DNA of 64,000 nt from Candidatus Omnitrophota bacterium (GCA_015233115.1 JADFYJ010000001.1:3084-67083), one strand, 5' to 3'; positions 14,614 to 50,411 are shown, counted from the first letter of the stretch. A program made the numbers and translations. Notes: a model not told the origin generated them from the sequence alone.

Positions 14614-14734
14614 CGCGCGGTAGGGCGGTTAGCATTTAAACCAAATCCTTCGCTCAAACAACCTTGGCGAAGCGCCAAGGAAACTCGCGCGGGGATTCGG
14701 TTTTAACGCCAACCTTGAGTTGGGGCACGCGGTT
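14614..14734 (+). repeat. ~120-nt structured intergenic element, family R1, copy 1 (variant central hairpin)
   Basis: gcgcgcggtagggcgg...tttaaaccaaatccttcgctcaaa-[ccttggcgaagcgccaagg]-...ggattcggttttaacgcc...ggcacgcggtt; the central stem differs from other copies but stays self-complementary. Confidence 0.8.
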
Positions 14735-14779
14735 ATTGGTTTGATTAGATTTTTCTTATTGCGTAGTTATAACTGCGAT

Positions 14780-15136
14780 TTACAAATCGTTTTTTATAAT
14801 CTGCAGGATTTTGGTTTCATTAACGGGTTTAATCAGAGGGATAGTTTTTAGTTCCGCAACTTCTGTCTGCTGTCTGTGCTCAATCAAAGTAATAATTTTC
14901 AGCCCCGGCCGTTTTGTTCGTATATTTAAAATGTCGTCTTTAATTGGGTCAATGGTTTCGAGGGTGCTCAGATCTAAAATTAACATGGAAATTTTTGCGT
15001 CATGTTCCAGGCAGTCAAAGACCTGCAGTGTGCTGTCCGTCAAAATTAATTCATGGCGTTGAAACAATAAGCGATGAAATAGTTCTAGCGTCTTTTTGTT
15101 ACTGGAGAAAATAAGCGCGCGGGGAAATTGGTTCAT
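14780..15136 (-). CDS. receiver-like (CheY-fold) protein, possibly atypical
   Basis: 118 aa; receiver-like layout with candidate acceptor Asp in LILDLS and a conserved Lys region, but the N-terminal acidic pair is not obvious. Confidence 0.5.
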   Translation of the reverse strand: MNQFPRALIFSSNKKTLELFHRLLFQRHELILTDSTLQVFDCLEHDAKISMLILDLSTLETIDPIKDDILNIRTKRPGLKIITLIEHRQQTEVAELKTIPLIKPVNETKILQIIKNDL

Positions 15137-15675
15137 AAGGTTGACGGAGTCATAACGGAAATATATTTAGCGAGTATTGAACCGTTATTTTTTATGACAT
15201 GTTCTTTAGTGGCGTCAAGATGGATGGAATGATTCTTGGGTAGACGGATTGGCTCCCCATCAATGAGAATTTCGATCTCACCGGACAAGACAAAAATAAA
15301 TTTTTCTGAACCAATAGATCCTTTTTCTTTATCAGTATGCCCTTTAGGCTGTAGTTGCACCAGTAGGGGGAGAAGGCGTCGATTGGAAACGCTTTGTGAT
15401 AAAATTTGAAAGCTAAGTTTAGGATTGGCAGCTAAAGCCGCGGCATGCGCCTGGATTTTTTTTTCTTCGTCTTCTCGTAACGCGGCTTGATATAGATCTG
15501 TTAGCGGAACTTGGAGCGAATTGGCAATGTGTAAATGAGAATCAACCGTGCCTTGCATTTTGCAGTTTTCCATGCGGCTTAAGGTGGCGACTTGTACGCC
15601 GCTTTTCTGGGATAATTCAACCAGGGTCATATTCTGGGCTTCACGAATTTCTTTAATTTTTTTACCGACAAACAT
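15133..15675 (-). CDS. XRE-family HTH + cupin-domain transcriptional regulator
   Basis: HTH_3 (IKEIREAQNMTLVELSQKSGVQVATLSRMEN) then a cupin beta-barrel; start moved to the internal ATG at 15675, which has an AAAGGA RBS (the ORF-track start at 15735 gives a 20-aa leader). Confidence 0.75.
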   Translation of the reverse strand: MFVGKKIKEIREAQNMTLVELSQKSGVQVATLSRMENCKMQGTVDSHLHIANSLQVPLTDLYQAALREDEEKKIQAHAAALAANPKLSFQILSQSVSNRRLLPLLVQLQPKGHTDKEKGSIGSEKFIFVLSGEIEILIDGEPIRLPKNHSIHLDATKEHVIKNNGSILAKYISVMTPSTL

Positions 15676-16146
15676 AGCTGTCCTTTCGTAATTATTGAAT
15701 AATATTTTAACAAAAATTGCGGAATAATCAAACATTTTCTTGTTTTGATTTAATGCGAATAACTATTTAATCAAATAATTTGACAAAAAGACAAATTAAT
15801 GTTATATTTTGAACATCAGCAAAAGTCGTTTTGATAATTTGTATTCCGGGTGCGCGGTAACTAAGGTAAACTAGGGAATTATCTTAGGGGGTTGTGAGGG
15901 AAAGCGAGAACGCTGCGCTCCCGGAATATTAAATAAAATGGTTTATGGTTAATGGTTTTGGAATTTGAAGTATTAATTTTTAAAAGTATTGGTTTTTAAT
16001 TAATAATAAAAAAAAATTTGTCGCGGCCATTTTAGGACCTGAAAACTTCCCATCATTATAATAAATATTAAAGTTGTTTTGATTTTTTCTACCTCTCATG
16101 TTACATTATCTAATCATTAACATAATATTCGTATTCTAGGCGCGCT

Positions 16147-16185
16147 AACAACCAAAAACCATCAACCAAAAATCAACAATATCAC
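16147..16185. repeat. CAAC-heptad array
   Basis: aacaaccaaaaaccatcaaccaaaaatcaacaat immediately upstream of the 16190 CDS. Confidence 0.55.
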
Positions 16186-16189
16186 AATT

Positions 16190-17924: not shown

Positions 17925-17990
17925 AAGTTTAGTTTTTTGTTTTTTCATTGTTACATTGTTACACTGTCACATTGTTACAATTAAAATTTA
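17925..17990. repeat. GTNAC octamer array
   Basis: cattgttacattgttacactgtcacattgttacaa, 8-bp period, ends ~15 nt before an AGGAGG RBS. Confidence 0.65.
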
Positions 17991-21782: not shown

Positions 21783-22619
21783 ATGCATGAGCCGTTTGTT
21801 AAAAAAAGTATTTTACCGGGATTTTCTTTATCTTTGGGGTTTACGATTTTTTATCTAAGCCTTATTGTCTTGATTCCATTGTCTATGCTTTTTTTAAAAA
21901 CATCGTCATTAAGTTTTAAAGGATTTATTGATGTGATCATGGACCCGCGGACTTTAGCTGCTTATCGTCTGAGTTTTGGAACCGCGTTCGTGAGCGCTGG
22001 CATAAATGCGGTATTTGGTTTTATAGTGGCGTGGGTTTTGGTCCGGTATACTTTTCCGGGTAAACGGATTGTGGATGCTTTGGTGGATTTTCCATTGGCT
22101 CTGCCGACGGCGGTAGCGGGGATAGCGTTAACGGAGCTTTATACTCCGACCGGCTGGGTAGGGCAATATTTAAATGTGTGGGGTATTAAAGGCGCGTTTA
22201 GCCCCTTTGGAATTACCATTGCTTTAACATTTATTGGTTTGCCTTTTGTGGTACGGACCATTCAGCCGGTTCTGGAGGACTTGGATCCGCAGATTGAAGA
22301 GGCCGCCGCGTCGTTAGGGGCTAACCGCTGGCAGACCTTAACGACGGTGATTCTTCCAATCATTTTTCCGGCCTTATTGGCTGGCGTTACTTTGGCTTTA
22401 GCCAGAGCGATTGGAGAATATGGTTCAGTTATTTTTATTGCTGGTAATATGCCGATGAAAACGGAAATTGCGCCTTTGTTGATTATGACAAAATTAGAAC
22501 AATATGATTATGCGGGAGCCACCGCGATCGCGATTGGCATGCTGTTGATTTCATTTTTACTTTTAGCCATGGCGAATTTTTTTCAGTGGAAGACATCAAA
22601 GAATTTAGGAAAAGCGTAA
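21783..22619 (+). CDS. cysT: sulfate ABC transporter permease CysT
   Basis: ABC permease EAA-like loop (EEAAASLGANRWQT); 6 TM. Confidence 0.9.
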   Translation: MHEPFVKKSILPGFSLSLGFTIFYLSLIVLIPLSMLFLKTSSLSFKGFIDVIMDPRTLAAYRLSFGTAFVSAGINAVFGFIVAWVLVRYTFPGKRIVDALVDFPLALPTAVAGIALTELYTPTGWVGQYLNVWGIKGAFSPFGITIALTFIGLPFVVRTIQPVLEDLDPQIEEAAASLGANRWQTLTTVILPIIFPALLAGVTLALARAIGEYGSVIFIAGNMPMKTEIAPLLIMTKLEQYDYAGATAIAIGMLLISFLLLAMANFFQWKTSKNLGKA

Positions 22620-22621
22620 AG

Positions 22622-22700
22622 AAGGTTTTTGGTTTTTGGAAAAAGCGATTATTTTCAACAACCGATAACCAACAACCAACAACCATCAACCATCAACCGA
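22622..22700. repeat. GTTG/CAAC heptad element
   Basis: ggtttttggtttttggaaaaagcgatt...caacaaccgataaccaacaaccaacaaccatcaaccatcaacc upstream of cysW. Confidence 0.65.
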
Positions 22701-22713
22701 ATAACTATATATT

Positions 22714-28305: not shown

Positions 28306-28315
28306 ATAATATATT

Positions 28316-28430
28316 ATGTGGTTTTTGGTTTTTGGATGTTGGTTTTTGGTTGTTGAGAAAAATCGCTTTTTCCTAAAACTAAAAACTCTCAACCATTAAC
28401 GGTGAAACCAACGATTTCAACAATTTCAAC
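28316..28430. repeat. GTTG/CAAC heptad element
   Basis: gtggtttttggtttttggatgttggtttttggttgttgagaaaaatcgctttttcctaaaactaaaaactctcaaccattaacggtgaaaccaacg. Confidence 0.65.
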
Positions 28431-28453
28431 ATTTATGAAAAACAGATTTAAAA

Positions 28454-28572
28454 CGCGCGCGGTAGGGCGGGTTGCATTTAAACCAAATCATTCGCTCAAA
28501 CAGCAGCTCCTAAGCGGAGCTGAACTCGCTCGGTGATTCGGTTTCAACGCTAACCTTGGAATTGGGCACGCG
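28454..28572 (+). repeat. R1 structured element, copy 2
   Basis: cgcgcggtagggcgggttgcatttaaaccaaatcattcgctcaaacagcagctcctaagcggagctgaactcgctcggtgattcggtttcaacgctaacc...gggcacgcgc. Confidence 0.8.
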
Positions 28573-28592
28573 CATATATGATTTAATCGCTT

Positions 28593-29707: not shown

Positions 29708-30067
29708 ATGATATCTGAGTATTTAACAACTTCACAAACGGCCAGACTTTTTCATGTCACCCGATTTACTGTTCTTAACTGGATTAAACAGCAAAAATTA
29801 CAGGCTGTTTCAACTTTGGGCGGACACCAAAGAATACCTCAAAAAGCTATTGAAGACCTTCTCAAGCAAAAACAACAGGGATCCAAAATACCTGTTCAAG
29901 CACATATTTCCAAACAAATTCCTGAAGTAAAAAAAACAGTTAAACCTATCAGCACAGGCAGACCAGCACAAGCTAAAGCAGCTGAATTTGCTCGTGTTAT
30001 GAGAAAAGGGTCTTTTATATCCGGGAAATTTATCGCGTCTATAAAAAGCGGATTTTCACTTTTATGA
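29708..30067 (+). CDS. excisionase/MerR-type HTH DNA-binding protein (MamR-like candidate)
   Basis: TTSQTARLFHVTRFTVLNWIKQQKL...GGHQRIP = HTH_17-type helix; paralog of the 56528 ORF (SVTRFSVINWVKKGIL..PGGHRRI). Confidence 0.55.
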   Translation: MISEYLTTSQTARLFHVTRFTVLNWIKQQKLQAVSTLGGHQRIPQKAIEDLLKQKQQGSKIPVQAHISKQIPEVKKTVKPISTGRPAQAKAAEFARVMRKGSFISGKFIASIKSGFSLL

Positions 30068-30074
30068 AGTAAAA

Positions 30075-30150
30075 ATTTTATGGTTTTTAGTTGTTGGTTG
30101 TTGAATGTAATCGCTTTTTCCAAAAACCATGAACCATCAACGATTCAAAT
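30075..30150. repeat. GTTG/CAAC heptad element
   Basis: ggtttttagttgttggttgttgaatgtaatcgctttttccaaaaaccatgaaccatcaacg. Confidence 0.65.
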
Positions 30151-30156
30151 TTATTT

Positions 30157-31784: not shown

Positions 31785-31787
31785 AAT

Positions 31788-31870: not shown

Positions 31871-31881
31871 AAGGAGAGGTT

Positions 31882-32460: not shown

Positions 32461-32478
32461 AAAAATTTAGGATAATAT

Positions 32479-34472: not shown

Positions 34473-36164
34473 ATGGTAACACGTACTCATGTAAAAAAGC
34501 ACAACCCCTCATTAGAAGAAATTTCCGCAAAGATTAAAAATGCGGATTTGAACACCTATTTTATTTTTGGCGCTATCCTCATCGTTTTGATTGCGGGTGT
34601 TTATGCTTTGTTCGCTCCTGAAACGACCAATGAGCCGGTCGGAAATCCTGCCTGCGGAAAAATTGTGGTTGCAACGGATGGGTCAACGCTAGCGTCGAAA
34701 GTTTCGTCCACTTTACCGGAAGCGCGGTATTTTCTGGTTGTCAATCCTTTGACTAAGAGATTGGTTGAATCAATCAAAAATCCTTATCAGGGTAAAGTGC
34801 CGAATCCTCAGATTGCTTATTTAATCGCCGGTAAGGGTGAAGAAGCAGTTATTGTCGGAAGCATTGATCAAGAGAGTTATAATATTTTTAATCAATTTAG
34901 CATTCGGGTGTTTGGCGGGTATCGAGGCCAGGCTAAACAAGTTATTAGTTTGTACCGCAAAGCGAGAATAGGACAGATGGCGCGTCCGACCATGAGCGCT
35001 CCTCAAAATGTTAAGGGACATGCGCAAGTAGCTTTTCAAGGTTTGACAAATTTTGTTTGTCCGCGATGCGGTCAGACGGCTAATGGACAAAATTATAGAG
35101 GCGCAGGTTGTCCGATTTGTCCTAATTGCGCGATCCAGATGATGCAGCAAAATACTTTGCCGCAAAGACCCATGTTGGGACGACAGAATGCCCTGGGTAT
35201 GCGTATTAATCAGCCGTATTGTCCTATTCCCAATGCGCAAAATTCTCAGAATGTTCCTATGCAGAATCAAGTGGGTACTCAGAGTGGAGTACAGGCTGGC
35301 GCAGTTATTCAGGATATATACAGCAAAGGTGTTATGGATGGCTTAAGCATGAAAAATAATTTTGCCGGCGGATTACAGGCCGCGTTTGGTTTTGGCCAGC
35401 AAGCTTTTGTATGTCCGGTTTGTAATTGGCGGATGAAAGCTTCTAAACAAGGGAATAATTTTCCGGCTTGCCCGAATTGCGGTTCGCCTATGGCTTTGGA
35501 TATGTCGAAACAAAATCAAGAACCACAAGGGCCGTTTGCGGAAGGGGTATTTGCCGCTAACACTGTTCCTGCGGTTCAACCCGCTTATCCGATGAATAAT
35601 CAGGCGAATAATCAAATGAATATAAATCAAGGTAATGAATTAACCCAAGCTTTTCAATGTCCGAATTGTAATTGGCGGATGTATGCGAAGCAAGGTGCTA
35701 ATGAATTTCCACAATGTCCCAATTGCGGTCAGATTATGGCACGGGCAGGCAATGCATTCCAAAAACAAAATACTCAAAACGGTGCTTTTGCCAATAACGG
35801 AAATTTTGCGGCACAAATCGCGCTTCCACAAAATAATCAAGCTGCGGCAGGAACGACCACTGTGGCTCCACCGATTTTTCGTAACGCGGTTATGCCTCAT
35901 GAATATCGGGGAGTTTGCGAGAATTGTCATATTATTCGGGCTGATATCGCGATACCGGCGAATGCGCAAATGCCGCATCCATACCGCGGGATTTGTTCCA
36001 ATTGCCATCAGATTTTAGGAACTGGGGCTGGAGTACAAAATAACAATCAAATCGCGGTTCAGCCAAATGATCCGGCTATGATGCAGAATGATCCAACAAC
36101 GCAAAATCAATTTCAAAATAATACGGCCCCGGATCAGGGTGTCGCGCATGTGGGAATAAAATAG
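34473..36164 (+). CDS. NifX/NifB-like domain + repeated zinc ribbons + tandem magnetochrome protein
   Basis: TM; residues ~60-160 resemble the dinitrogenase FeMo-cofactor-binding fold (KIVVATDGSTLASKVS...ARYFLVVNP...IAGKGEEAVIVGSID); three CPxC-x12-16-CPNC ribbons in Q/N-rich linkers; C-terminal MPHEYRGVCENCH and MPHPYRGICSNCH. Confidence 0.7.
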   Translation: MVTRTHVKKHNPSLEEISAKIKNADLNTYFIFGAILIVLIAGVYALFAPETTNEPVGNPACGKIVVATDGSTLASKVSSTLPEARYFLVVNPLTKRLVESIKNPYQGKVPNPQIAYLIAGKGEEAVIVGSIDQESYNIFNQFSIRVFGGYRGQAKQVISLYRKARIGQMARPTMSAPQNVKGHAQVAFQGLTNFVCPRCGQTANGQNYRGAGCPICPNCAIQMMQQNTLPQRPMLGRQNALGMRINQPYCPIPNAQNSQNVPMQNQVGTQSGVQAGAVIQDIYSKGVMDGLSMKNNFAGGLQAAFGFGQQAFVCPVCNWRMKASKQGNNFPACPNCGSPMALDMSKQNQEPQGPFAEGVFAANTVPAVQPAYPMNNQANNQMNINQGNELTQAFQCPNCNWRMYAKQGANEFPQCPNCGQIMARAGNAFQKQNTQNGAFANNGNFAAQIALPQNNQAAAGTTTVAPPIFRNAVMPHEYRGVCENCHIIRADIAIPANAQMPHPYRGICSNCHQILGTGAGVQNNNQIAVQPNDPAMMQNDPTTQNQFQNNTAPDQGVAHVGIK

Positions 36165-36672: not shown

Positions 36673-36845
36673 TTTATTTTGGTTTTTGGTTGATAGTTTT
36701 TGGTTGATGGTTATGAAATGATTCTCCAAAAATTAAAAACCTTTTACAACAACATATTTTATTTAATTGGTTATTGGTTTCGGTTATTTAAATATTTCGT
36801 TTTTTCCAAAAACCACTAACCATCAACAATCAACCAGCAAAATTA
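36672..36845. repeat. GTTG/CAAC heptad element (two modules)
   Basis: ttttggtttttggttgatagtttttggttgatggtt...ctccaaaaattaaaaacc and ggttattggtttcggtt...cgttttttccaaaaaccactaaccatcaacaatcaaccagc. Confidence 0.65.
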
Positions 36846-36854: not shown

Positions 36855-38063
36855 ATGCCCAATCAAATTAAAGAATATCATCGTAAGCGAATGCAGAGAT
36901 TTTGGCTTGTGGTAATGATTGTTATCATTGGCATTTTCCTTCTGGCCGCGCTTATGCATATCGGCGCGGGCGACGCGGAGTGGGGCGGGATGTCTGTTTC
37001 TAACGCGACGCCTATGATGATGATGGAACATAATATTCCGAAAGATGAACAAGGGGTCGTCGTTGATTGGTGCGAAGATCCAGCCTATGCGGCAGGGGTG
37101 CGGGCTGGAGATCTACTCAAAGCCATTAACAATCAAAGGATCAAAAATTTATCGGATTTTTTGAAAGTGACAAAGAAGACCAGTTTGGCTCCGGGCGCTT
37201 TATTAGACATTTTACGTAATGGCCAACCGCTTTATATTACGATGGAAAATAAGATTGGCATTCACGATCAGCTTAAAAAATCGCTTAACATTGATCCGGG
37301 CACTACTGGAACAACGGCAGGAAATACTAGTACGACTGATGTTCCGTTATCCGCAGGTGTAGGCAAATCAGTACATATTCCGGTTGCGGTTAATAATACT
37401 CAGGCGATTATTCCGGCAGCTTTTGCCAATCGTTCTCCGGCGGAAACAGCGGAGGCAGGGGTTAATGTTGCCCCAAAGGGTATTCCTAATATGAGTTTAC
37501 CTACGCCTAAAGAACAAGGCGCGGCTCATAAAGAATTAGTGGAAGGACATTGGCTGGGCTTAGAACTTATTCCTTTGACTGTCGAGTTAGCCACGGAATA
37601 CCGTGTTCCTCCGGATATTAAAGGGGTTCTGGTTGATGAAATATGTCTTGAGGCTGCTGAATCCGGAATTCTCGCCGGTGATATGGTGGTGGCGATTGAG
37701 GATGAATCAACGCCCGATTTAACCGCTTTTTCAGAAGCAACCAGAAATGTTAAAAATAGGTCTAAAGCGAAAGTACTTGTTTCACGCCGTGGAAAATTAA
37801 TGACCTTTATTATTACCTCTGATAGAACTTTAGGCTTTTCACAGAATGAGGCAGCTCAACCTATCACGCCAGGTGCGCTCAGTCCTCACCGCAGCAGGAA
37901 TAAACCATGTACAACTTGTCATATTATCATGCTGACCGGCGGTCAGCTTCCAACAGACGCGGGTGATATATTACCTAATCCGCCGCCGATCGCCAAAGGC
38001 GCGGTTGCGCCCCATGAATACCGGGGTAAATGCAAAACGTGTCATATTATTTTGAAAAAGTAG
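36855..38063 (+). CDS. PDZ-PDZ-magnetochrome protein (MamP / MamE-Cter-like)
   Basis: N-terminal TM; two PDZ-like regions (GVRAGDLLKAINNQRI; ILAGDMVVAIEDE); C-terminal CTTCHII and APHEYRGKCKTCHII c-heme sites. Confidence 0.7.
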   Translation: MPNQIKEYHRKRMQRFWLVVMIVIIGIFLLAALMHIGAGDAEWGGMSVSNATPMMMMEHNIPKDEQGVVVDWCEDPAYAAGVRAGDLLKAINNQRIKNLSDFLKVTKKTSLAPGALLDILRNGQPLYITMENKIGIHDQLKKSLNIDPGTTGTTAGNTSTTDVPLSAGVGKSVHIPVAVNNTQAIIPAAFANRSPAETAEAGVNVAPKGIPNMSLPTPKEQGAAHKELVEGHWLGLELIPLTVELATEYRVPPDIKGVLVDEICLEAAESGILAGDMVVAIEDESTPDLTAFSEATRNVKNRSKAKVLVSRRGKLMTFIITSDRTLGFSQNEAAQPITPGALSPHRSRNKPCTTCHIIMLTGGQLPTDAGDILPNPPPIAKGAVAPHEYRGKCKTCHIILKK

Positions 38064-38065: not shown

Positions 38066-38542
38066 ATGGCTTCAAAAATAAATATGAATGATAATGCCGG
38101 ATATTTGCCGATTTGTTTTTATATTGAAAGAAAAGCGTGCTTAGTTGTCGGCGGCGGCAAAGTGGCATTTCGCAAAATTACCATACTCAAAAAATTTGGG
38201 GCTGTCATAACTTGCTTGAGCCCGATTTTTGTTAAACCGCTGGAACGACTTCACGCAACGGCAAAAATTAAATGCGTCAAACGCGGTTATCCGCAGACTT
38301 TGTCTTTAAAAAAATATGCTTTGGTCATTGCCGCGACGAATGATCCGGTTGTTAATAAACGCGTGGCTTCCGACGCTAAACGAGATAATGTTTTGTTTAA
38401 TGTGGTTGATAAAAGTGCAGCTGGTTCGGTAATAATGCCGGCTATTTTGAAACATAAAGGGATGCTTATTAGTGTATCTACCGGCGGCCGCAGTCCAAGC
38501 CAAGCAAAGAAAACACGAGATATTTTAAAAGGTGTGATATGA
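38066..38542 (+). CDS. sirC: precorrin-2 dehydrogenase / sirohydrochlorin ferrochelatase (SirC/Met8/CysG-N type)
   Basis: Rossmann CLVVGGGKVAFRKI..., 159 aa; start set to the ATG at 38066 just after the upstream stop. Confidence 0.75.
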   Translation: MASKINMNDNAGYLPICFYIERKACLVVGGGKVAFRKITILKKFGAVITCLSPIFVKPLERLHATAKIKCVKRGYPQTLSLKKYALVIAATNDPVVNKRVASDAKRDNVLFNVVDKSAAGSVIMPAILKHKGMLISVSTGGRSPSQAKKTRDILKGVI

Positions 38543-39531
38543 AATTAGTGCTGATTGGAACAAGTCATAAAAGAGCGCCTTTGGCGATGCGGGAAAAATT
38601 TAGTTTTTCGGGCGAGAAGTTGGGGCAGTATTATGCTCGTCTTAAGAGCTATCCTGACGTGCGTGAGGCGTTTATTTTGTCGACTTGCAATCGGGTTGAA
38701 ATATATGGAGTTGGGCAGGATGCTGTTGTTGTCGCTGATCAGTTAAAGAAATTTTTGCGTGAAGTGCATGGGATGAATTCGGCTTCATGGGAAGAACATT
38801 TTTATAATAAGACAAATAAAGATGCGCTCGAACATCTTTTACGAGTAGCTAGCGGCCTTGATTCTATGGTAATCGGTGAGCCGGAGATTATTGGACAAAT
38901 TAGAAAAGCCTATGATCAAGCTTGTATGGCCGGCGTGATTGGCTCGTATCTTCATAAAGCTTTGCAAGATTGCCTACAAGTCGGGAAAAAAGTGCGCAGT
39001 TCTACCGGCATATCTCGCGGAGTAACGTCAGTTTCAGGTGTAGTTGTTGAATTATTGAAAAAACAATCTAATCTTAAAGATAAAAAAGTTTTGGTCATCG
39101 GCGCGGGTAAAATCGGCGCTATGACTGTGGTGAAATTAGCAGATCTTCTTATTGGTGAAATTATAGTGATGAACCGTGACATGACTAGGATGGCAGATTT
39201 CGAGCATATTACGAATATGCGGCCGGCAGAATTTTGCGCGCTTAAAGATGAAATTTTAATCGCGGATATTGTCATTGCCGCGACAGCTTCAATGAAATAT
39301 CTTTTGGATCGCGACTTAATTAAAGAGGCGTTTTTGACCCGGAAAAATGATTTGCTTTTGGTTGATTTAGGCGTGCCCCGCAATATTGATGAAACCACCC
39401 GGCAAATCACTGGCGTGACGCTTTATAACATTGATGATTTAGCCCCGATTGTGGATGAGACCATGCGGTACCGGACTCAAGAAGCCGAAAAAGCCGAAGA
39501 AATTATTCAAGGTAAATTGGCATTTATGTAG
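38539..39531 (+). CDS. hemA: glutamyl-tRNA reductase
   Basis: LIGTSHK.APLA.RE, active-site STCNRVEIY, NADPH fold VLVIGAGKIG. Confidence 0.9.
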   Translation: MKLVLIGTSHKRAPLAMREKFSFSGEKLGQYYARLKSYPDVREAFILSTCNRVEIYGVGQDAVVVADQLKKFLREVHGMNSASWEEHFYNKTNKDALEHLLRVASGLDSMVIGEPEIIGQIRKAYDQACMAGVIGSYLHKALQDCLQVGKKVRSSTGISRGVTSVSGVVVELLKKQSNLKDKKVLVIGAGKIGAMTVVKLADLLIGEIIVMNRDMTRMADFEHITNMRPAEFCALKDEILIADIVIAATASMKYLLDRDLIKEAFLTRKNDLLLVDLGVPRNIDETTRQITGVTLYNIDDLAPIVDETMRYRTQEAEKAEEIIQGKLAFM

Positions 39532-39539
39532 AACATAAA

Positions 39540-39660
39540 GCGCGCGGTTGGGCGGTTTGCATTTAAACCGAATCCTTCGCTCAAACAGCAGCTCCTAAGC
39601 GGAGCTGAACTCGCTCGGTGATTCGGTTTCAACGCCAACCTTGTATTTTGGCACGCGGTT
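39540..39660 (+). repeat. R1 structured element, copy 3
   Basis: gcgcgcggttgggcggtttgcatttaaaccgaatccttcgctcaaacagcagctcctaagcggagctgaactcgctcggtgattcggtttcaacgccaacc...ggcacgcggtt. Confidence 0.85.
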
Positions 39661-39667
39661 AGAAATT

Positions 39668-40558
39668 ATGAGATCAATTACTTTTGGAATACGAAAAAGT
39701 GTTTTAGCTCGCCGGCAAATGGACGAGTTTATCGCGTATTTGGGAAAGAATAATATTACGTTTGATTATTCGGTCAAAATTATTCAGACGGCAGGTGATC
39801 AGGATCAGAAGTCGCCGGTTTCGCAAATGGGGCAGGGAATTTTTACGAAAGAAATTGAGCGCGCGATTCTGAACAAGGAAATTGATTGCGCGGTACATAG
39901 CCTTAAAGATATGCCGGTTAAAACGGAAAAAGGGACTTTGCTGACTTTTTGTGGTGGTCGAGAAGATGTTCGTGATTGTCTGGTAGTTCGAGCAGGTATA
40001 TCGGCTGATCATTTAAATAATTTGCGTATAGGAACAGGCAGTCCGCGGCGGATCGCTTTTTTAAAAGAGTTAGATCCATCCGTTAATATATTGCCCATTC
40101 GAGGGAATGTTGACACTCGTTTACGGAAATTGGATTTAGGCGAATACGACGCCATTGTTTTGGCTGCGTGCGGTTTGAAACGTTTAGGATATGGAAACCG
40201 GATCAATCGCTATTTTGACCCGGACACTTTTGTTCCTGCTGCTGGTCAGGGTGTTGTTTGCGGTCAGACGCGGGAAGATGATGTAGAATTAATCAAGGTA
40301 TTGAAAAAATGTGTTTCGCCTGTAACGGAACAAATAGTCAAAGCGGAACGAAAAGTATTGGAAGCTTTAGGCGTCGGATGTCAAACTCCGTTCGGCGTCT
40401 ATGCTCGTTTTGAAGGTGAGACATTTATTATATCTGCCAAGTTGTATGCAGAACATAACCAAACTTTTATGACAGAACGTAAAACGGGAAATAAAGATGA
40501 TTTTGAAAAAGCTACGGATGAATTGATTGAAAATCTTAAACGAAAAATAAAGGATTAA
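39668..40558 (+). CDS. hemC: porphobilinogen deaminase (hydroxymethylbilane synthase)
   Basis: start moved to ATG 39668 (MRSITFGIRKSVLA) because the ORF-track start lies inside the R1 repeat; cofactor-binding Cys in GVGCQTP. Confidence 0.9.
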   Translation: MRSITFGIRKSVLARRQMDEFIAYLGKNNITFDYSVKIIQTAGDQDQKSPVSQMGQGIFTKEIERAILNKEIDCAVHSLKDMPVKTEKGTLLTFCGGREDVRDCLVVRAGISADHLNNLRIGTGSPRRIAFLKELDPSVNILPIRGNVDTRLRKLDLGEYDAIVLAACGLKRLGYGNRINRYFDPDTFVPAAGQGVVCGQTREDDVELIKVLKKCVSPVTEQIVKAERKVLEALGVGCQTPFGVYARFEGETFIISAKLYAEHNQTFMTERKTGNKDDFEKATDELIENLKRKIKD

Positions 40559-40560
40559 AA

Positions 40561-40697
40561 GGTAGGGATGTGTGCAATGGGCGTCGTTTCAACCAAGTCC
40601 TTCGCTCAAACAGCAGCTCCTAAGCGGAGCTGAACTCGCTCGGGGACTTGGTTTTCACTCTGCCTGAGCAAGCGCAAGGTTTGTGGCATGCAAACTA
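40561..40697 (+). repeat. R1 structured element, copy 4 (divergent flanks, conserved central hairpin)
   Basis: ...tttcaaccaagtccttcgctcaaacagcagctcctaagcggagctgaactcgctcggggacttggttttcac... Confidence 0.7.
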
Positions 40698-40716
40698 AAA
40701 TTTAGAAAATAAAGCT

Positions 40717-42222
40717 ATGAATAAAGTAATTAAATTAGGAAAGGTTTATCTCGTCGGTGCTGGTCCTGGTGACCCTGGTCTTATCACTGTTAAGGCACTC
40801 GCCTGCGTTCAGACTGCTGACGTGATTTTGTATGATAAATTGATTGACACCAGCATATTAAAATATTGTAAAACTGGCGCGGTCATCAAATATGTCGGTA
40901 AAGAAAAAGGGAAGATCTTACAGCAAGAAGCGATCAATGAGTTGTTGCTAGGGTATGCTCGTGAAGGTAAAACTGTAGCGCGGCTTAAAGGCGGAGACCC
41001 GTTTATTTTTGGCCGCGGGCAGGAAGAAATGATTTTTCTGAAAAGTTATGGTATTGACTGTGAAGTGATACCGGGTGTGAGTTCATTTTATGCTGTTCCT
41101 GAAGTGTGTGGCATCCCGCTCACCCATCGGGACATTTCCAGCGGATTTATGGTATTAACCGGGCATGAAAAGCCGGGTAAAAATGTTGAAAATGTTGAAT
41201 GGAAGCATGCGGCTAAATTTCAAGGCACGATTGTAATAATGATGGGATTGTCAAATCTGGCTGAGCTTACGGCTAAATTGCTTAAATATGGGAAAGACGG
41301 TAGAACTTTGGCAGCGGTTATTGCGCATGGATCCACCCCCCAACAGGAAGTTGTAGTTGGGACGCTGGCAGATATTGCGTATAAATCCCGGAATTTCAGT
41401 TCTCCGGCTATTTGTGTCATTGGCTCTGTGGTGAAAGTTGGTTTCGCCTTAAATCCGGATTTAAAACCGCTTTTGAATAAACGCTATTTATCTACGGCGA
41501 GTGAAGATCTTAACCGGGATTTGTCAGCTATTTTAGAACGATGGGGCGCTAAAGTGGAATGTTTGCCTATGATTCGAATTGAAGAAAATTCTGATACTGT
41601 TTTGATGGATCAAATTATTGCGGATCCTAAAAAGTTTGACTGGCTGGTTTTTACATCGCGACATGGCGTTCAGTATTTTTTTAAAAGATTTTATGTGTTA
41701 AAAGGGAAAATAGGAAGTTTGAAGGGACGAGTGGCATGCGTCGGGACAGGTACAGCCAAAGAATTCTCTAAATGTGGAATACAACCGGATTTGATGCCTG
41801 CCATATTTACAACCAAAGACTTGGGTTTGGCTTTATTGGAAAAAGGCGTTAAAGGGAAAAAATTAGCTTTAATCCGCACGCAGATGGACAAGGATCCTTT
41901 AAAGAAAATGTTGAAGAAAGCCGGTGCTGATATCACAGATTGTTTTGCTTACAACGTCGCGGATACCAATGATAAAACAGCATTAAAAAACGCGGTTATG
42001 CAAAAACCCGACGGTATTTTCTTTTTAAGCCCTAGATCTGTGCGGGTATTTTTTGAACTGCTGTCAACTAAAGATCTTGAACCAGTTAAAAAATCGAGTT
42101 TATTTTTTTCAATCGGTACAGTCACAACTCAGGCATTAAAAAAACAGGGTGTTAAAAATGTTATACCTGCTAAAGAACATACAGTACAGGGGTTGGTAGA
42201 ACTCTGTTTAGGAGGAAACTAA
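40717..42222 (+). CDS. cobA/hemD: bifunctional uroporphyrinogen-III C-methyltransferase / uroporphyrinogen-III synthase
   Basis: N-terminal SUMT (VYLVGAGPGDPGLITVKA, RLKGGDPFIFGRG), C-terminal HemD fold. Confidence 0.9.
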   Translation: MNKVIKLGKVYLVGAGPGDPGLITVKALACVQTADVILYDKLIDTSILKYCKTGAVIKYVGKEKGKILQQEAINELLLGYAREGKTVARLKGGDPFIFGRGQEEMIFLKSYGIDCEVIPGVSSFYAVPEVCGIPLTHRDISSGFMVLTGHEKPGKNVENVEWKHAAKFQGTIVIMMGLSNLAELTAKLLKYGKDGRTLAAVIAHGSTPQQEVVVGTLADIAYKSRNFSSPAICVIGSVVKVGFALNPDLKPLLNKRYLSTASEDLNRDLSAILERWGAKVECLPMIRIEENSDTVLMDQIIADPKKFDWLVFTSRHGVQYFFKRFYVLKGKIGSLKGRVACVGTGTAKEFSKCGIQPDLMPAIFTTKDLGLALLEKGVKGKKLALIRTQMDKDPLKKMLKKAGADITDCFAYNVADTNDKTALKNAVMQKPDGIFFLSPRSVRVFFELLSTKDLEPVKKSSLFFSIGTVTTQALKKQGVKNVIPAKEHTVQGLVELCLGGN

Positions 42223-43328
42223 TGATTCCATGTAGTAAAATCATGCGCGGTGAGCGTAGTGTTCATAATGAACGGAAAACCGGGCCGCTTTTTGTTTGGA
42301 ACGTGATTAGCCGATGTAACCTTTTGTGCAGTCATTGTTATCGTGATTCACAGGCCGGTATGGAAGCGCCTGATCTGTCTGATGAAAAATGTTTAGAATT
42401 AGTCAGCCAGATTAAAGCTGTCAATCCGCCGATCGTGCTTTTGACCGGAGGGGAACCGCTTTTAAGAAAAAATATTTTTGATTTGATCAAAGAATGCAAG
42501 AATCAAGGTTTACGGGTCGGGCTTTCCACCAATGGCACCTTAATAGACAAAAGTATGGCACAAAAAATCAGCCAAGCCGGAGTTGATTATGTAGGGATCA
42601 GTATTGACGGGAAAAAAGAACATCATGATGTGTTCCGCGGATCAAAAGGTGCGTATGATGCCAGCTGGGCAGGGCTCAAGATATTAAATGAGTTAGGCGT
42701 TAAAACCGGTGTGCGTTTTACTTTGACTGCTGCTAACAGTGGCGATCTTATGGACATTCTGGAAAAAACCGTAGCTAGCGGATGTAAACGTTTTTGCCTG
42801 TATCATTTGGTCTATGCCGGCCGCGCGTCTAAAGATTTGGATATGACTGTCAAAGCGAAGCGGGACATTTTAAAAATATTTTTTACAAAAGTAAAAGAGT
42901 TATCCGCGAAAGATCCGAGTTTTGATGTGTTGACCACAGATAATCCGGCAGATGGAATTTTTATGTCAAAGATTATTGATGATGGCGAAGCGGCCATGTC
43001 CTGCATAATGGCGCACGGTGGCTGTTCAGCCGGTGACCGGGTGGTATATCTGGATTCAACCGGTGATGTTTATCCTTGCCAGTTTTTGCGCGATCATTCG
43101 TTGGGTAATGTGAAAGATCAGACATTTTTAGAAATATGGGAAAATCATAGCAATGAATTTTTACAGCAGTTAAGGAATAAAAAAGGATTGTTGCAAGGTG
43201 TTTGCGGTGAATGTGCGCACAAAGGCATTTGCGGCGGATGCCGCGCCCGTGCCAAAGCTTTTCACGGTTCCCTATGGGCAGAAGATCCGGCATGCTATTT
43301 GAATGAAAATGAAAAAAATGGTGTCTGA
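42222..43328 (+). CDS. radical SAM / SPASM protein of the alternative heme pathway (AhbC/AhbD/NirJ family)
   Basis: CNLLCSHCY radical SAM cluster motif; C-terminal CGEC..C..GC SPASM cysteines; position inside the heme operon. Confidence 0.75.
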   Translation: MIPCSKIMRGERSVHNERKTGPLFVWNVISRCNLLCSHCYRDSQAGMEAPDLSDEKCLELVSQIKAVNPPIVLLTGGEPLLRKNIFDLIKECKNQGLRVGLSTNGTLIDKSMAQKISQAGVDYVGISIDGKKEHHDVFRGSKGAYDASWAGLKILNELGVKTGVRFTLTAANSGDLMDILEKTVASGCKRFCLYHLVYAGRASKDLDMTVKAKRDILKIFFTKVKELSAKDPSFDVLTTDNPADGIFMSKIIDDGEAAMSCIMAHGGCSAGDRVVYLDSTGDVYPCQFLRDHSLGNVKDQTFLEIWENHSNEFLQQLRNKKGLLQGVCGECAHKGICGGCRARAKAFHGSLWAEDPACYLNENEKNGV

Positions 43329-43421
43329 TCTCGATTGGAAATTGACGCCAAGCATTTAACCGGCGATAATTTTTTCTTTCGAGCAATTTGTTTCAAGTCG
43401 AGATCTGACACCATTTTTTAT
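43313..43421 (+). terminator. large hairpin element (arms ~22 nt) followed by a T-run, terminator-like, copy 1
   Basis: aaaaaatggtgtctgatctcga ... tcgagatctgacaccatttttta; the first arm overlaps the last codons of the radical SAM gene. Confidence 0.5.
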
Positions 43422-43424
43422 AAA

Positions 43425-43545
43425 GCGCGCGGTAGGGCGGTTTGCATTTAAACCAAATCATTCGCTCAAACAGCAGCTCCGAAGCGGAGCTGAACTCGCT
43501 CGGTGATTTGGTTTCAACGCTAACCTTGGATTTGGGCACGCGGTT
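43425..43545 (+). repeat. R1 structured element, copy 5
   Basis: gcgcgcggtagggcggtttgcatttaaaccaaatcattcgctcaaacagcagctccgaagcggagctgaactcgctcggtgatttggtttcaacgctaacc...ggcacgcggtt. Confidence 0.85.
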
Positions 43546-43580
43546 AATGAAATGTTTTTAAAAATTTATGAGAATTAATT

Positions 43581-44549
43581 ATGACTAATCATATGCCTAC
43601 CCGATTAAGACGTTCAGTCTCCATTCGGAATCTTGTCCGTGAGACTCGATTGGCTAAAGAAAATTTGGTCATGCCTTTGTTTTTTAAAGAAGGGAAGGGC
43701 GTTGAACCGATTGAGTCTATGCCGGGCATTGGTAAAATGTCACAGGACGCGCTTTTAAAAGAAGTTGAAAAACTGCAAAAGGCTGGGATCAAATCTATTT
43801 TGTTGTTTGGGTCAACCTCTTGCAAGGATGCGGATGGCACTTTAAGTTATGATGAAAAAAGTCCTTTTCATACGACGTTGCGCGCGATTAGAAAAGCCAG
43901 TGATATGGTGATTATCGCGGATGTTTGTTTGTGCGCGTACACGGATCACGGACATTGCGGTGTTTTGACGGCAGGTCCTAAAAATCGACGGATTGATAAT
44001 GCGAAAACTTTAGAGACTTTTGCGAAAGTGGCGGTATCTTATGCGAAGGCCGGTGTTGACATGGTGGCACCGTCAGCTATGGCAGATGGGCAAGTGAAAG
44101 CGCTCCGTACGGCATTAGATAAAAATGGATGTTCTCAAACTTTGATTATGAGCTATGCCGTTAAATATGCGTCGAGCTTTTATGGGCCGTTCCGGGATAT
44201 TTATGATTCCTCTCCTGAATTTGGTGACAGGAAAACCTATCAAATGGATCCGGGCAATAAACGTGAAGCTTTGCGGGAAGCATTGTTGGATGTGAAAGAA
44301 GGCGCGGATATTATCATGGTTAAACCGGCTTTGACATATTTGGACATAATCAGCGCGGTGCGTGAAAAGGTGAATGTCCCGGTCGCCGCGTACAATGTGA
44401 GCGGGGAATATTCCATGATCAAAGCGGCAGGTTTAAAAGGCTGGCTGGATGAGAAATCCGCAGCTTTGGAAATTTTGACGTCTATCAAACGCGCAGGCGC
44501 GGATATGATTATTACGTATTGGGCCAAGGAGGCAGCCGCGTGGATTTAA
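43581..44549 (+). CDS. hemB: porphobilinogen synthase (ALA dehydratase)
   Basis: RLRR...R N-terminus, metal-site Cys cluster (CLCAYTDHGHCG), active-site Lys regions. Confidence 0.95.
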   Translation: MTNHMPTRLRRSVSIRNLVRETRLAKENLVMPLFFKEGKGVEPIESMPGIGKMSQDALLKEVEKLQKAGIKSILLFGSTSCKDADGTLSYDEKSPFHTTLRAIRKASDMVIIADVCLCAYTDHGHCGVLTAGPKNRRIDNAKTLETFAKVAVSYAKAGVDMVAPSAMADGQVKALRTALDKNGCSQTLIMSYAVKYASSFYGPFRDIYDSSPEFGDRKTYQMDPGNKREALREALLDVKEGADIIMVKPALTYLDIISAVREKVNVPVAAYNVSGEYSMIKAAGLKGWLDEKSAALEILTSIKRAGADMIITYWAKEAAAWI

Positions 44550-47911: not shown

Positions 47912-47913
47912 GT

Positions 47914-48189
47914 ATGAAAGCGTCAAGTGTATTTAAGATCATCGCGATATTTTTTGTGGTAATGCTAGCCGGTATGTTTATTTTTGAAAATATTGATCCT
48001 GTACCGATTTGGATTCCATTTTTTAAAGGCCGTCGTTTCGGGCTGATTTTTATTATTTTGGCTTCTTATATTTTGGGAGTGCTTACCGCAGTTTGGGTTA
48101 TGAAACGAATTGGCGCGAATATGAAAAAACAAATAAAATTGCGCGAATTGGCTGAAGAAGAAGAGGAGTTGTTTGAAGATGAAGCATAA
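47914..48189 (+). CDS. small membrane protein (LapA/DUF1049-like) with acidic tail
   Basis: two TM, C-terminal EEEEELFEDEA; GAGGAG RBS. Confidence 0.45.
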   Translation: MKASSVFKIIAIFFVVMLAGMFIFENIDPVPIWIPFFKGRRFGLIFIILASYILGVLTAVWVMKRIGANMKKQIKLRELAEEEEELFEDEA

Positions 48190-49069
48190 GGGACCTAAAA
48201 CTCCACAAAAATGTGAGTCATGCGCGCGGAATACTATTTTAGCCGGTCTTTTAGCAAATTTTTTTCTTGCGGCTTTTAAGCTTTTTGTTGGTTTTTTGGG
48301 ACGCAGCCGCGCTTTGATCGGAAGCGGTTTATGCAACTTGAGCGATGTGGGTTCGTCGTTTGTGGTTATCATTGGTATCAAATTTTCCAAGAAGCCGGCA
48401 GACCATCGTTATCCATATGGATATGGTAAAGTCGAGTTTATCGCTCAAGTCGTCATGAGCGTTACCATGATTTTGGGTACAGTTGCGCTTATTTTAAGCT
48501 CGTTCATTGTCATTGCTAAACGGACGCTGGTGGTTCAGCATATGGTGGTATTTTTTGTGGCTATTTTGAGCGCCATCATTAATGCTTTGCTTTTTAAATT
48601 TTCACATTGCGGCAGTAAAGAGCTTAATAGCCCGTCGTTAAAGGCGCATGCTGAACATAACAAGATTGACGTTATTTCTTCTTTACTGGTTGCGATCGGG
48701 GTTATTGTGACCCGTAAAGGTATGCATTGGGTTGATCCAGCAATTGCTATTTTCGAGTGCGCCCATGTTTTGCATGGCAGTATGGGTATTTTAAAAGAGG
48801 GGCTTAAAGGGATTATGGATACCAATCTTCCTGACAGCTATCTGGAAAACGTAAAAAATACTGTTTTACGGGTTAAAGGGGTTAACAAAGTAAATCTGGT
48901 TAAAGGCCGCCAGTCTGGACGGCATATTGTGTTAAACATTATCATGCAATTGAACCCTGATATTACGGTTCTGGACGCTAAGAAGATTAATCAGTCAGTA
49001 AAAGCCTATTTACGCGGTGAAGATAAACATATTGGTAACATTTCAATACAGGTCGTTCCAGCAGAGTAA
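48179..49069 (+). CDS. cation diffusion facilitator (CDF) transporter, MamB/MamM-like
   Basis: 6 TM with a CDF metal site (H/D in TM2/TM5: ...NLSDVGSS..., ...SLLVAIGV...), C-terminal cytoplasmic domain; ATG 48179 chosen (TTG 48173 possible). Confidence 0.75.
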   Translation: MKHKGPKTPQKCESCARNTILAGLLANFFLAAFKLFVGFLGRSRALIGSGLCNLSDVGSSFVVIIGIKFSKKPADHRYPYGYGKVEFIAQVVMSVTMILGTVALILSSFIVIAKRTLVVQHMVVFFVAILSAIINALLFKFSHCGSKELNSPSLKAHAEHNKIDVISSLLVAIGVIVTRKGMHWVDPAIAIFECAHVLHGSMGILKEGLKGIMDTNLPDSYLENVKNTVLRVKGVNKVNLVKGRQSGRHIVLNIIMQLNPDITVLDAKKINQSVKAYLRGEDKHIGNISIQVVPAE

Positions 49070-49320
49070 CAAAGTAACCGAGTAACAGAGTAACAGAGAA
49101 AAAGCGGTTATAGGGATAGGCGATGATTAGAAAAGCGATTGGTTTGAAGTAAAACGATAAATAAATAAGGTGAAAATTGCTTTATTTTAATTTATAAATT
49201 GTGAAATTGAATTTATGAGATTTCTTGTTTGATAATTTTTGTCGATAGTTTTTGCTTTTTTGTTTTTTTACTCGGTTACTAGGTTACCCGGTTACTTTGT
49301 TACTTTTAAGTTAGGATAAG
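49066..49320. repeat. GTNAC octamer-array cassette bracketing an AT-rich spacer
   Basis: gtaacaaagtaaccgagtaacagagtaacagag+gaaaaagcggtt ... ttttactcggttactaggttacccggttactttgttact; right array ends ~15 nt before the ATG. Confidence 0.75.
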
Positions 49321-49322
49321 CC

Positions 49323-50237
49323 ATGGAAGATAAATGTGTCAGATGCGCGAAGACGGTTCCCTGGATGGTTTTAATGGGGAATTTGACGCTGTCTATTTTT
49401 CAGATTTATATTGGATACGCGGCTAAGTCAAAAGGTTTGGTCGCTGACGGGATCCATTCTGGAACAGACGTGGTCACGACCATCATGGTTATTATCACCG
49501 TCGCGCTTTCGAGTCACAAAGATGATAAAAAATACCCTTGGGGTTTAGGAAAATCTGAATTTCTGGGTGCAGTTTTTGCTTATATTTTATTATTAGGTAT
49601 CGCATTAATGATTTTGATTGACGCGATCCATGTGATCATGAGCGGGGTGATTAATCCGCCGCACATGGCCGCTTTTTTTGCGGCTTTGGTGGCCATCATC
49701 TCGAATTATATTTTATCGTCGTATGGATTTTGCGCTGGGAAGAAAATGAATTCGCCGGCTTTAATTGCTAACGCTCAGGAAAACCGCTCTGATATGTTAT
49801 CGAGTATCGCGGTTTTAGTTGGGGTTTTTGCCGCCAACATTGGCTTTCCGATTGTCGACGCGTTAGCTGCTGTTCTGGTTGGTTTAATGATTGCCAAGTC
49901 TGCGGTGACTTTAGGCTTGCAGGCTTACAAAAATTTAATTGACGAATCTTTGCCCGGAGATAAAGAAAAAATTCTTGAGAAAGCAGTTATGCAGTATAAA
50001 GAGGTTAAGGGCGTTAATTATATTCACGTCCGCCGTGTTGGGCAAAAAGCGTGGATTGACATGGAGATTATTATTGATCACAAACGGACAGTAAAGGAAG
50101 GCCACGCGATCGCCCGAGAAATACGTCAGGCACTTATGCGGAAGTACAGTCAGATAAAAGACGTCACGATTTCTTTTACATGCAAAGAAGTTCAAGGAGT
50201 AAAAGGGATTAGAAAAGAAATAGTCATCGCGAAATAA
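49323..50237 (+). CDS. cation diffusion facilitator (CDF) transporter, MamM/MamB-like
   Basis: paralog of the preceding CDF (HSGTDVVTT..., ...DMLSSIAVLVGV...); 304 aa. Confidence 0.75.
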   Translation: MEDKCVRCAKTVPWMVLMGNLTLSIFQIYIGYAAKSKGLVADGIHSGTDVVTTIMVIITVALSSHKDDKKYPWGLGKSEFLGAVFAYILLLGIALMILIDAIHVIMSGVINPPHMAAFFAALVAIISNYILSSYGFCAGKKMNSPALIANAQENRSDMLSSIAVLVGVFAANIGFPIVDALAAVLVGLMIAKSAVTLGLQAYKNLIDESLPGDKEKILEKAVMQYKEVKGVNYIHVRRVGQKAWIDMEIIIDHKRTVKEGHAIAREIRQALMRKYSQIKDVTISFTCKEVQGVKGIRKEIVIAK

Positions 50238-50288
50238 AGTAGCAGAGCAAAAGCGAATGATTAAAGAATGAAAAAGCGATCAGGAAAA

Positions 50289-50411
50289 GCGCGCGGTTGG
50301 GGCGGTTTGCATTTAAACCAAATCCTTCGCTCAAACAGCAGCTCCTAAGCGGAGCTGAACTCGCTCGGGGATTCGGTTTCAACGCAAACCTTGTGTATGG
50401 GGCACGCGATT
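50289..50411 (+). repeat. R1 structured element, copy 6
   Basis: gcgcgcggttggggcggtttgcatttaaaccaaatccttcgctcaaacagcagctcctaagcggagctgaactcgctcggggattcggtttcaacgcaaacc...ggcacgcgatt. Confidence 0.85.

Follow-up and report, generated by a model that had tools for sequence, protein, structure and literature searches.

Why do six similar, non-coding palindromes stand between the genes of a magnetotactic bacterium, three of them inside its heme-biosynthesis operon? The question is raised by a 64-kb stretch of DNA from a Candidatus Omnitrophota bacterium (GCA_015233115.1, JADFYJ010000001.1:3084-67083), here called the window, in which a structured element of 122-128 nucleotides (nt) recurs. An initial annotation of the window had offered several readings of this element, namely, a small RNA, a processing or terminator module, or a structured miniature inverted-repeat transposable element (MITE). 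The last of these is the best fit, given the empty sites in relatives, the 93-97% identity among four of the copies, and the mixed, nested, inverted and contig-end members found elsewhere. The six copies probably represent a young family of non-autonomous palindromic (foldback) mobile DNA elements, comparable to MITEs and to REPINs, i.e., hairpins built from repetitive extragenic palindromic (REP) sequences.

Filled junctions in the window and empty junctions in relatives

Exactly six copies are present in the window, all in the same orientation and each about 125 nt long in a MAFFT alignment. The 12-mer TTCGCTCAAACA has six exact occurrences, all on the plus strand and solely at the six copy sites. 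A covariance model of the core (R1) scored the six copies at 64-76 bits, and the next best match in the 64 kb reached 12 bits (both strands, filters off). In blastn comparisons with copy 5, identity was 96.6% for copy 2, 93.7% for copy 3, and 93.5% for copy 6; for copy 1 the match was confined to the two arms, the apical stem being different, and for copy 4 it was confined to the inner 64 nt. The copies are listed below with the strand that carries the purine-rich core and the best fold.

Copy 1, 14611-14735, minus strand: full element (TA...GTTA) of a sister subfamily; core 14635-14706, 64.4 bits; free energy (dG) -60.5, z -7.4.
Copy 2, 28449-28576, minus strand: full element; core 28477-28547, 75 bits; z -5.8; ends 16 nt upstream of the start of an ApbE-family gene.
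Copy 3, 39536-39661, minus strand: full element; core 39562-39632, 72.9 bits; z -5.5; between the hemA stop codon and the hemC ATG.
Copy 4, 40559-40698, minus strand: inner ~70 nt (40587-40657) common to the other copies, outer arms different; 68.4 bits; between hemC and cobA/hemD.
Copy 5, 43421-43546, minus strand: full element; core 43447-43517, 75.6 bits; z -6.2; between a radical-SAM/SPASM (AhbD-like) gene and hemB.
Copy 6, 50285-50412, minus strand: full element; core 50312-50382, 74.5 bits; z -7.0; between a cation-efflux (MamB/M-like) gene and a TPR (MamA-like) gene.

Six of the six copies are intergenic. Sequence inspection, the 12-mer count and R1 thus bear out the sites, the common orientation and the intergenic placement given in the initial annotation. 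That annotation had assigned four copies to the heme segment, whereas only three (copies 3-5) lie within the hemA-hemC-cobA/hemD-ahbD-hemB run; copy 6 follows the cation-efflux gene, copy 2 precedes the ApbE gene, and copy 1 is located 3' of an HD/GAF-domain gene. Copy 1 stands between convergent genes and adjoins two minus-strand genes, one for a cupin/HTH protein and one an open reading frame without a Pfam match. Its apical stem is indeed replaced, as had been noted, by the self-complementary CCTTGGCG/CGCCAAGG (ccttggcg/cgccaagg), and its core carries one change (CCGCGCGAG).

The same magnetosome and heme gene order is found in four loci (L116-L119) of the closest relatives, metagenome-assembled genomes of magnetotactic Omnitrophica, in which HemC is 84% (L119), 77% (L116), 71% (L117), and 63% (L118) identical to that of the window. 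hemA and hemC overlap or lie 7 nt apart in L117, L118 and L119 (7 nt in L119), hemC and cobA-hemD overlap in L116-L119 (ATGA, TGATG, ATGtcTAA), and ahbD and hemB are 9 nt apart in L118 and overlap in L117. When aligned with L119, copy 3 appears as a single clean gap of ~130 nt, placed after the stop codon and ahead of the following ATG (alignment A3), and copy 4 likewise as one insertion (alignment A4). No family member was detected by R1 in the four relative loci. The junctions being empty in three to four relatives, the window copies are taken to have been gained in this lineage, since losses elsewhere are less parsimonious, and the 93-97% identity of the copies points to recent amplification.

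Two of the junctions carry something else in L116. A different, GAGCG-rich repeat of 135 nt, with no counterpart in the window, is present there in two copies (9837-9971 and 13524-13658; 85% identical) at hemA|hemC and ahbD|hemB, i.e., at the junctions of copies 3 and 5, with its purine-rich strand on the gene strand. This may reflect hot spots for insertion at both junctions, or an ancient occupancy whose contents have turned over.

Two further observations concern the flanks of the heme copies. Directly 3' of copy 4, 26 nt (TTTGTGGCATGCAAACTAAAATTTAG; 40675-40703) align with the hemC 3' end of L119 at 20/26 nt; translated, they read CGMQTKI* compared with CSMKSKIYD* in L119, and the working hemC end lies 5' of copy 4. 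It is suggestive that the insertion of copy 4 may have duplicated or displaced the old hemC 3' end. Directly upstream of copy 5, a 107-nt repeat (43313-43419) with a 15-bp inverted repeat (GGTGTCTGATCTCGA...TCGAGATCTGACACC) overlaps the AhbD-like stop codon, and a second copy of this repeat, at 76% identity, is located at 56344-56450.

The folding strand and a core common to several phyla

Folded as RNA, the minus strand, which is antisense to the genes, is predicted to form a single long hairpin (-51 to -60 kcal/mol), and its z scores lie between -5.5 and -7.4 for five copies, with -2.8 for copy 4; the plus strand gives -41 to -50 kcal/mol and z about -1.7 to -2.1. DNA folding parameters lead in the same direction (z about -4 for the minus strand vs -1.7 to -2.4 for the plus strand). 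It is therefore the minus strand that folds significantly better than shuffled sequences, and not the plus strand to which the structure had initially been attributed.

This strand difference stems mainly from the centre of the element. On the minus strand, the core halves CCGAGCGAGUU and UGUUUGAGCGAA are predicted to pair as CG/CG, a 2x2 AG/AG loop, C-G, G.U, A-U, and G.U; on the plus strand, A.C and pyrimidine-pyrimidine mismatches are found at the core. In an alternative register, each side offers two consecutive pyrimidine-GA-purine steps (CGAG CGAG opposite UGAG CGAA). Such a context was found by nuclear magnetic resonance in DNA hairpins as the 'CGAG block', in which C:G pairs flank tandem sheared G:A pairs (PMC10085684). 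With 5'-CGAGCGAG-3' opposite 5'-UGAGCGAA-3', the core shares the pyrimidine-GA-purine context of the CGAG-block hairpins of the AUTS2 promoter, which were described in human DNA oligonucleotides and not as a genetic element; for the present element the block would be a reading of the sequence, and the thermodynamic prediction is instead the C-G/G.U/A-U/G.U helix with the 2x2 AG/AG loop. Because the core is invariant among the window copies, bar the one change in copy 1, it does not allow a choice between the two registers. In either register, folding through the core is predicted to be confined to the purine-rich strand.

The nested complementarity that had been recognized in the consensus, i.e., aaaccaaatc/gattcggttt around cagctcc/ggagctg, is real, and RNAalifold places 39 pairs on the six copies. 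The pair adjacent to the core, at the two ambiguous (M/K) positions of that consensus, does covary: three copies have C-G, two A-U, and one A.G. At a second covarying pair, three copies have G.U, two A-U, and one G-C, and copy 4 contributes one further double change. In copies 2, 3, 5, and 6, a short U-run (CUUUU, CUUUAU, GUUUU) comes after the GC-rich base of the minus-strand stem.

The element is not restricted to the window. On the purine-rich strand, members of the family share the layout of a long variable stem, CCGAGCGAGUU, a variable hairpin, UGUUUGAGCGAA, and the stem again; in more detail, the first long stem is followed by C and CGAGCGAG-UU(C), and UGUUUGAGCGAA stands between the variable hairpin and the returning long stem. 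The conserved unit of the superfamily is the centre and not the termini. A loose pattern scan with one genome per species returned 99 matches, mostly chance matches in coding DNA, which were sorted by their flanking stem (8-16 pairs in true members vs 3-5 in chance matches); a subset possessed an unforced long stem flanking both core halves, with CC before GAGCGAG and C after. A tighter pattern gave 16 metagenome contigs, most with the same architecture. Altogether, at least 40 further copies with core and flanking stem were collected, including 12 metagenome contigs. The hosts include Acidimicrobiia, Actinomycetota, Eggerthellaceae, Clostridiales/Eubacteriales, another Omnitrophota metagenome-assembled genome (MAG), a Gammaproteobacteria MAG, Lachnospiraceae (three copies in one MAG), Phycisphaeraceae (copies at two contig ends), and one Planctomycetales MAG with at least 16 copies.

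The 31 members underlying R1 represent at least 10 lineages and include the six window copies; the model recovered further copies that had not been selected by core strings. In the alignment of these 31 members, 87% of the cells of 14 outer-stem pairs are paired, and 14/14 of these variable-stem pairs show double changes; 0/500 shuffles reach the observed outer-stem score, and slid registers are only 26-45% paired. The fold therefore holds across further copies, which had been proposed as a check on it. All six window copies show the features of this cross-phylum 'GAGCGAG...UGUUUGAGCGAA' foldback family, namely, the covarying outer stem, (C)CGAGCGAGUU, a variable hairpin, UGUUUGAGCGAA, and the stem. 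Many members display a second conserved layer (GUUCCGCAG, a variable insert, and CGAGGACUG) that the window copies do not have. The hairpin between the core halves ranges from 8 nt to more than 100 nt, the longest containing whole nested copies, and the shortest member (L085) measures 64 nt.

How members are placed in their genomes is equally variable. The purine strand is co-directional with the flanking genes in about 8 cases and opposite in about 10, the remaining ones standing where genes converge or diverge. Counted by local GC skew, the orientations stand at 21 vs 22, by which an orientation tied to the replication strand was rejected family-wide. At the syntenic loci L102 and L106 (87.5% identity over 6.6 kb), the element occupies the same intergenic spot in inverted orientation, arms included. 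In L114 and L036, a copy lies within the apical hairpin of another copy in opposite orientation, and L109 and L054 contain adjacent inverted pairs. In the Planctomycetales MAG, such a nested arrangement has turned into a unit of ~330 nt that possesses terminal inverted repeats of its own (GGCTCTATGAA / TTCAAAGAGCC); in many of its copies the outer core is decaying. The neighbours are unrelated housekeeping genes; a link to a neighbouring protein family was considered and rejected, as they encode PBP, DPBB, secretin, GGDEF, aminotransferase, sugar kinase, and other proteins.

Two sets of loci deserve separate mention. In one metagenome, two members (L104 2629-2789 and L108 3042-3193) begin 11-13 nt beyond the 3' ends of tRNA-Pro and tRNA-Met genes, in both cases with the pyrimidine-rich strand co-directional with the tRNA. 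L047 and L060 (a termite-gut Oscillospiraceae MAG), L002, L016, and L029 contain near-perfect palindromes of up to -121 kcal/mol over about 170 nt, in which the core halves appear in swapped order at the apex (stem-AAACTCGC|TTCGCTCAAACA-stem). These long palindromes could represent a circular permutation of the family, or else a GAGCG-rich repeat in its own right.

A fold of this kind invites the reading that the element is a functional structured RNA, either a cis-acting processing or stability module in polycistronic mRNAs (plus strand) or a minus-strand small RNA, with the conserved internal loop as a protein-binding or tertiary motif. A core kept across phyla while the stems vary is the usual pattern of structured RNAs; the minus-strand fold of five copies lies far below shuffles (z -5.5 to -7.4), one pair alternates between G-C, G.U and A-U among copies, two pairs show double changes, and two members lie 11-13 nt downstream of tRNA genes. 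Nevertheless, we consider a functional RNA unlikely. In three to four related genomes the operon is present and its corresponding junctions are free of the element, which also speaks against a heme-operon RNA module. The gene-relative orientation is random family-wide and inverted at a syntenic site, copies are nested or located at contig ends, and the arms reach up to 35 nearly perfect Watson-Crick pairs with no clear G.U excess. Covariation in a palindrome does not by itself separate selection on RNA from DNA inverted repeats, and an excess of G.U over A.C in the outer arms, tried as proof of an RNA strand, was weak or absent (31:17 in the inner 14 pairs; 52:40 in the full arms). From the initial argument that covariation reflects selection on secondary structure, what stands is a real hairpin whose outer stem covaries once more copies are included.

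The searches for RNA signals were likewise negative. Rfam 15 gave no match at gathering score in the whole window and none at E<=1 in 28300-50600; at E<=10, copy 5 alone gave only a spurious HOTTIP_4 match, and 14 loci with family members gave only a tRNA. The scan that had been recommended thus places the element in no known Rfam family, REP-type repeats included. A promoter and terminator scan of 38500-44000 found no site on copies 3-5, neither promoter-like for a minus-strand transcript nor terminator-like, with counts at shuffle level; none of the four terminator-like sites in this region (GC-rich hairpin, then at least 5 U) coincides with these copies (0/4). A terminator or promoter role therefore finds no support at the copies.

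Comparison with known repeats and mobile elements

The element is small, has no coding capacity, and ends in terminal inverted repeats (TAAAGCGCGCGG / TAACCGCGTGCC, 9/12 identical as reverse complement), as is expected of a MITE, and copies 3, 4, and 5 are polymorphic insertions with filled and empty sites in related genomes. In most copies the ends read TA-AA-GCGCGCGG ... CACGCG-GT-TA. TA stands beside both ends in four of the five full-length copies (1, 2, 3, and 5) and near the ends of copy 4, and is not seen at copy 6. Correia elements of Neisseria, RUP and ERIC/IRU are likewise 100-160 bp long, with terminal inverted repeats, TA at their ends, insertion between genes or in operons, presence/absence differences, and transcripts that form hairpins. 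In known MITEs, the termini are conserved as transposase binding sites and the inside varies, whereas the termini of the present element differ between genomes and subfamilies and its centre is conserved. Unlike these MITEs, its copies also nest in apical loops in opposite orientation. A parent insertion sequence (IS), which would combine these termini with a transposase, was detected neither in the 64-kb window nor near the copies in about 0.9 Mb of family loci.

REP sequences and REPINs, which are moved by RAYT transposases of the Y1 HUH type, resemble the element in being short, non-coding, palindromic, extragenic, multi-copy sequences in either orientation that form long hairpins, are co-transcribed in operons, and are thought to be read as a folded single strand. 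They differ in that their defining 5' GTAG is not conserved in the element, which has GGTAGGG in copies 1, 2, and 5 and GGTTGGG in copies 3 and 6, and neither in members from other phyla. No RAYT gene was seen, and Y1_Tnp gave no match among the proteins scanned (the 64-kb window and the neighbours of family loci). Moreover, REP sequences differ between genera, whereas the central core of the element is common to phyla. In sum, the element is closest to REP/REPIN sequences and bacterial MITEs, while the comparisons by GTAG, by RAYT or parent IS, and by end conservation failed or were undecided.

Recombination sites used as a folded single strand, such as integron attC sites and other tyrosine-recombinase substrates that mark gene cassettes, are also imperfect palindromes 3' of genes; their structure is kept more than their sequence, and one strand folds better. 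The window copies share these properties and lie on the 3' side of genes in one orientation. This reading is nonetheless largely refuted and scarcely credible, as the element ends (GCGCGCGG / CACGCGGTTA) are without the R''/R' boxes (RYYYAAC / GTTRRRY), no integrase is present in the window, the orientation is random elsewhere, and the flanks consist of syntenic housekeeping, heme and magnetosome genes common to relatives and show no cassette organisation.

The core could alternatively be a new small catalytic or retroelement-associated RNA, e.g., a self-cleaving ribozyme, that spreads via an RNA intermediate as retrozymes do. Tandem G.A pairs are common in ribozyme cores, and a compact conserved core (64 nt in L085), an optional insertion point in the apical loop, a variable closing stem, and multiple copies scattered over phyla in unrelated contexts would all suit such an RNA. 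It is very unlikely all the same: ribozymes do not usually have perfect arms of such length, neither a reverse transcriptase nor another partner is found nearby, and 2.9 million viral contigs held no match to the exact core pattern. A cleavage site is not identifiable in the sequence, which leaves this reading as pure inference.

The position of the copies in operons suggests one more reading, namely, that they are domesticated, host-selected punctuation of DNA or mRNA, acting as insulators against antisense transcription, as REP-like protectors of mRNA 3' ends, or as nucleoid-protein sites. All six copies put the weakly folding strand into the mRNA, the minus-strand stem base followed by a short U-run could stop antisense transcripts, and the intergenic regions of this genome are packed with other repeat arrays of elaborate design. 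We regard such a role as quite improbable, since the terminator scan was empty at the copies, the relatives are without them, and co-directional gene pairs in other genomes carry the element in either orientation (about 8 vs 10).

The literature was searched for the core strings, as well as for MITEs of foldback or nested form whose loops are conserved; nothing relevant emerged, save the structural paper on CGAG blocks (PMC10085684). Matches to the family consensus in a plasmid collection were rejected as chance matches in a lacI-type gene.

The window contains several other repeats. A separate REP-like repeat, distinct from the element, consists of 33-nt palindromes of the form GTAGGGGCGATC-N4-GATCGCCC(G/C)TAC (GTAGGGGCGATC...GATCGCCCCTAC) in inverted pairs about 40-70 nt apart, which carry the GTAG typical of RAYT-associated REP sequences; they are located at 1366-1398/1445-1477, 23668-23698/23740-23772, 45547-45579/45610-45642, and 63884-63916. 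Inverted arrays of 8-mers bracket intergenic regions (6960-6995 with 7160-7197; 49056-49101 with 49257-49304; 55468-55529 with 55722-55769; 17932-17987; 32379-32465). Here, an array (AAGTGACC AAGTGACA GAGTAACC GAGTAACA) comes right after the stop codon and its reverse complement (..GTTACTCTGTTACTAGGTTACTCGGTTACT) just before the next start, with an AT-rich stretch and a recurring AAAAAGCGATTG motif between the paired arrays. Judged by their arrangement, the 8-mer arrays look like a regular punctuation or binding-site system of the genome. Other intergenic regions are flanked by inverted 7-mer arrays (GGTTTTT/GGTTGTT ... AAAAACC/ATCAACC) at 375-500, 10389-10451, 22606-22710, 28315-28404, 30063-30152, 31786-31875, 36677-36840, and 60842-60931. 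The same array design is built from AGGTAAA units in L119 (400-680), and in L027 (Oscillospiraceae) arms of TTGCGAG heptamers surround a GAGCGAA centre. A coding motif, ...MPHEYRGxCxNCH... (magnetochrome-type CXXCH heme-binding repeats), recurs in magnetosome genes at 35885-36019, 38000-38051, and 57389-57526, by which the window is recognized as a magnetosome gene cluster.

Proposed spread of the element and its wider meaning

Taken together, the initial interpretation is partly supported: the structured MITE is retained, the operon-specific RNA module is not, and the structured strand is the opposite one. As a mobile foldback DNA, the element would have spread into the AT-rich stop/start junctions of a magnetotactic Omnitrophica genome, with three of its targets in the heme-biosynthesis operon. 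As the core halves stand anywhere from 8 to more than 100 nt apart, they can meet only in a folded strand, i.e., a hairpin or cruciform. We infer that a trans-acting enzyme, not encoded in the window, would recognise the folded core in single-stranded DNA or a cruciform and move the whole hairpin. With an enzyme that reads the core, the arms would be free to drift, grow, and nest. For the host, the insertions would be passengers, transcribed within the operon mRNAs in the weakly folding orientation; they would break the stop/start overlap or abutment seen in relatives and leave the genes intact. Any putative effect on mRNA stability or processing would be secondary. As a conjecture, the uniform orientation in the window could reflect selection in operons against putting the stable hairpin and its short U-run into the mRNA; other genomes show no such bias.

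Several points weigh against the reading of the copies as young mobile DNA. Neither the window nor the immediate neighbourhood of family members yielded a transposase, RAYT or recombinase, so that mobility follows from presence/absence and copy similarity and not from a mechanism. The flanking TA fits a TA target duplication or, equally, a part of the inverted repeat, the L119 empty site being too diverged, and copy 6 is without it. Conservation of the centre rather than the ends is unlike known cut-and-paste MITEs. The common orientation of the six copies (two-sided p about 0.03) is not required of a purely selfish element, and the L116 repeat at the same junctions could mean old occupancy and not fresh insertion. 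As the exact core strings were set by the search patterns, their cross-phylum invariance is partly ascertainment; copies recovered by R1 only do show core variants (L054 6738-6831 and L013 2713-2804), e.g., CGCGCGGAGUUCCGCAG...CGAGGACUGUCUGAGCAC in L054.

A bolder and tentative possibility is that the family forms an undescribed cross-phylum class of selfish elements, in which a folded, strand-specific core (a double CGAG block, tandem G.A pairs or a G.U helix) is recognised and the termini are not. Its members might owe their movement to an enzyme that reads structure in single-stranded DNA or a cruciform, or to an RNA intermediate whose catalytic or protein-binding motif would be new. Recognition of the core would explain the variable arms, the nesting in opposite orientation, the inversion in place, and a centre conserved from Firmicutes to Planctomycetota. 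If an enzyme does read the core, this mode of recognition would differ from that of known MITEs, REPs and attC sites.

For the organism, the repeats are not a regulatory device of the magnetosome and heme cluster, which bears on operon regulation as inferred in uncultured magnetotactic Omnitrophota. More widely, the evidence points to a widespread bacterial foldback repeat family without an Rfam entry, with a conserved centre assembled by folding one strand, free arms, and nested copies. Such a family breaks assemblies, as its contig-end copies indicate, and in screens for covariation it can pass for a structured RNA. As for the six copies, they are ordinary passengers; the family that they reveal is widespread and oddly built.

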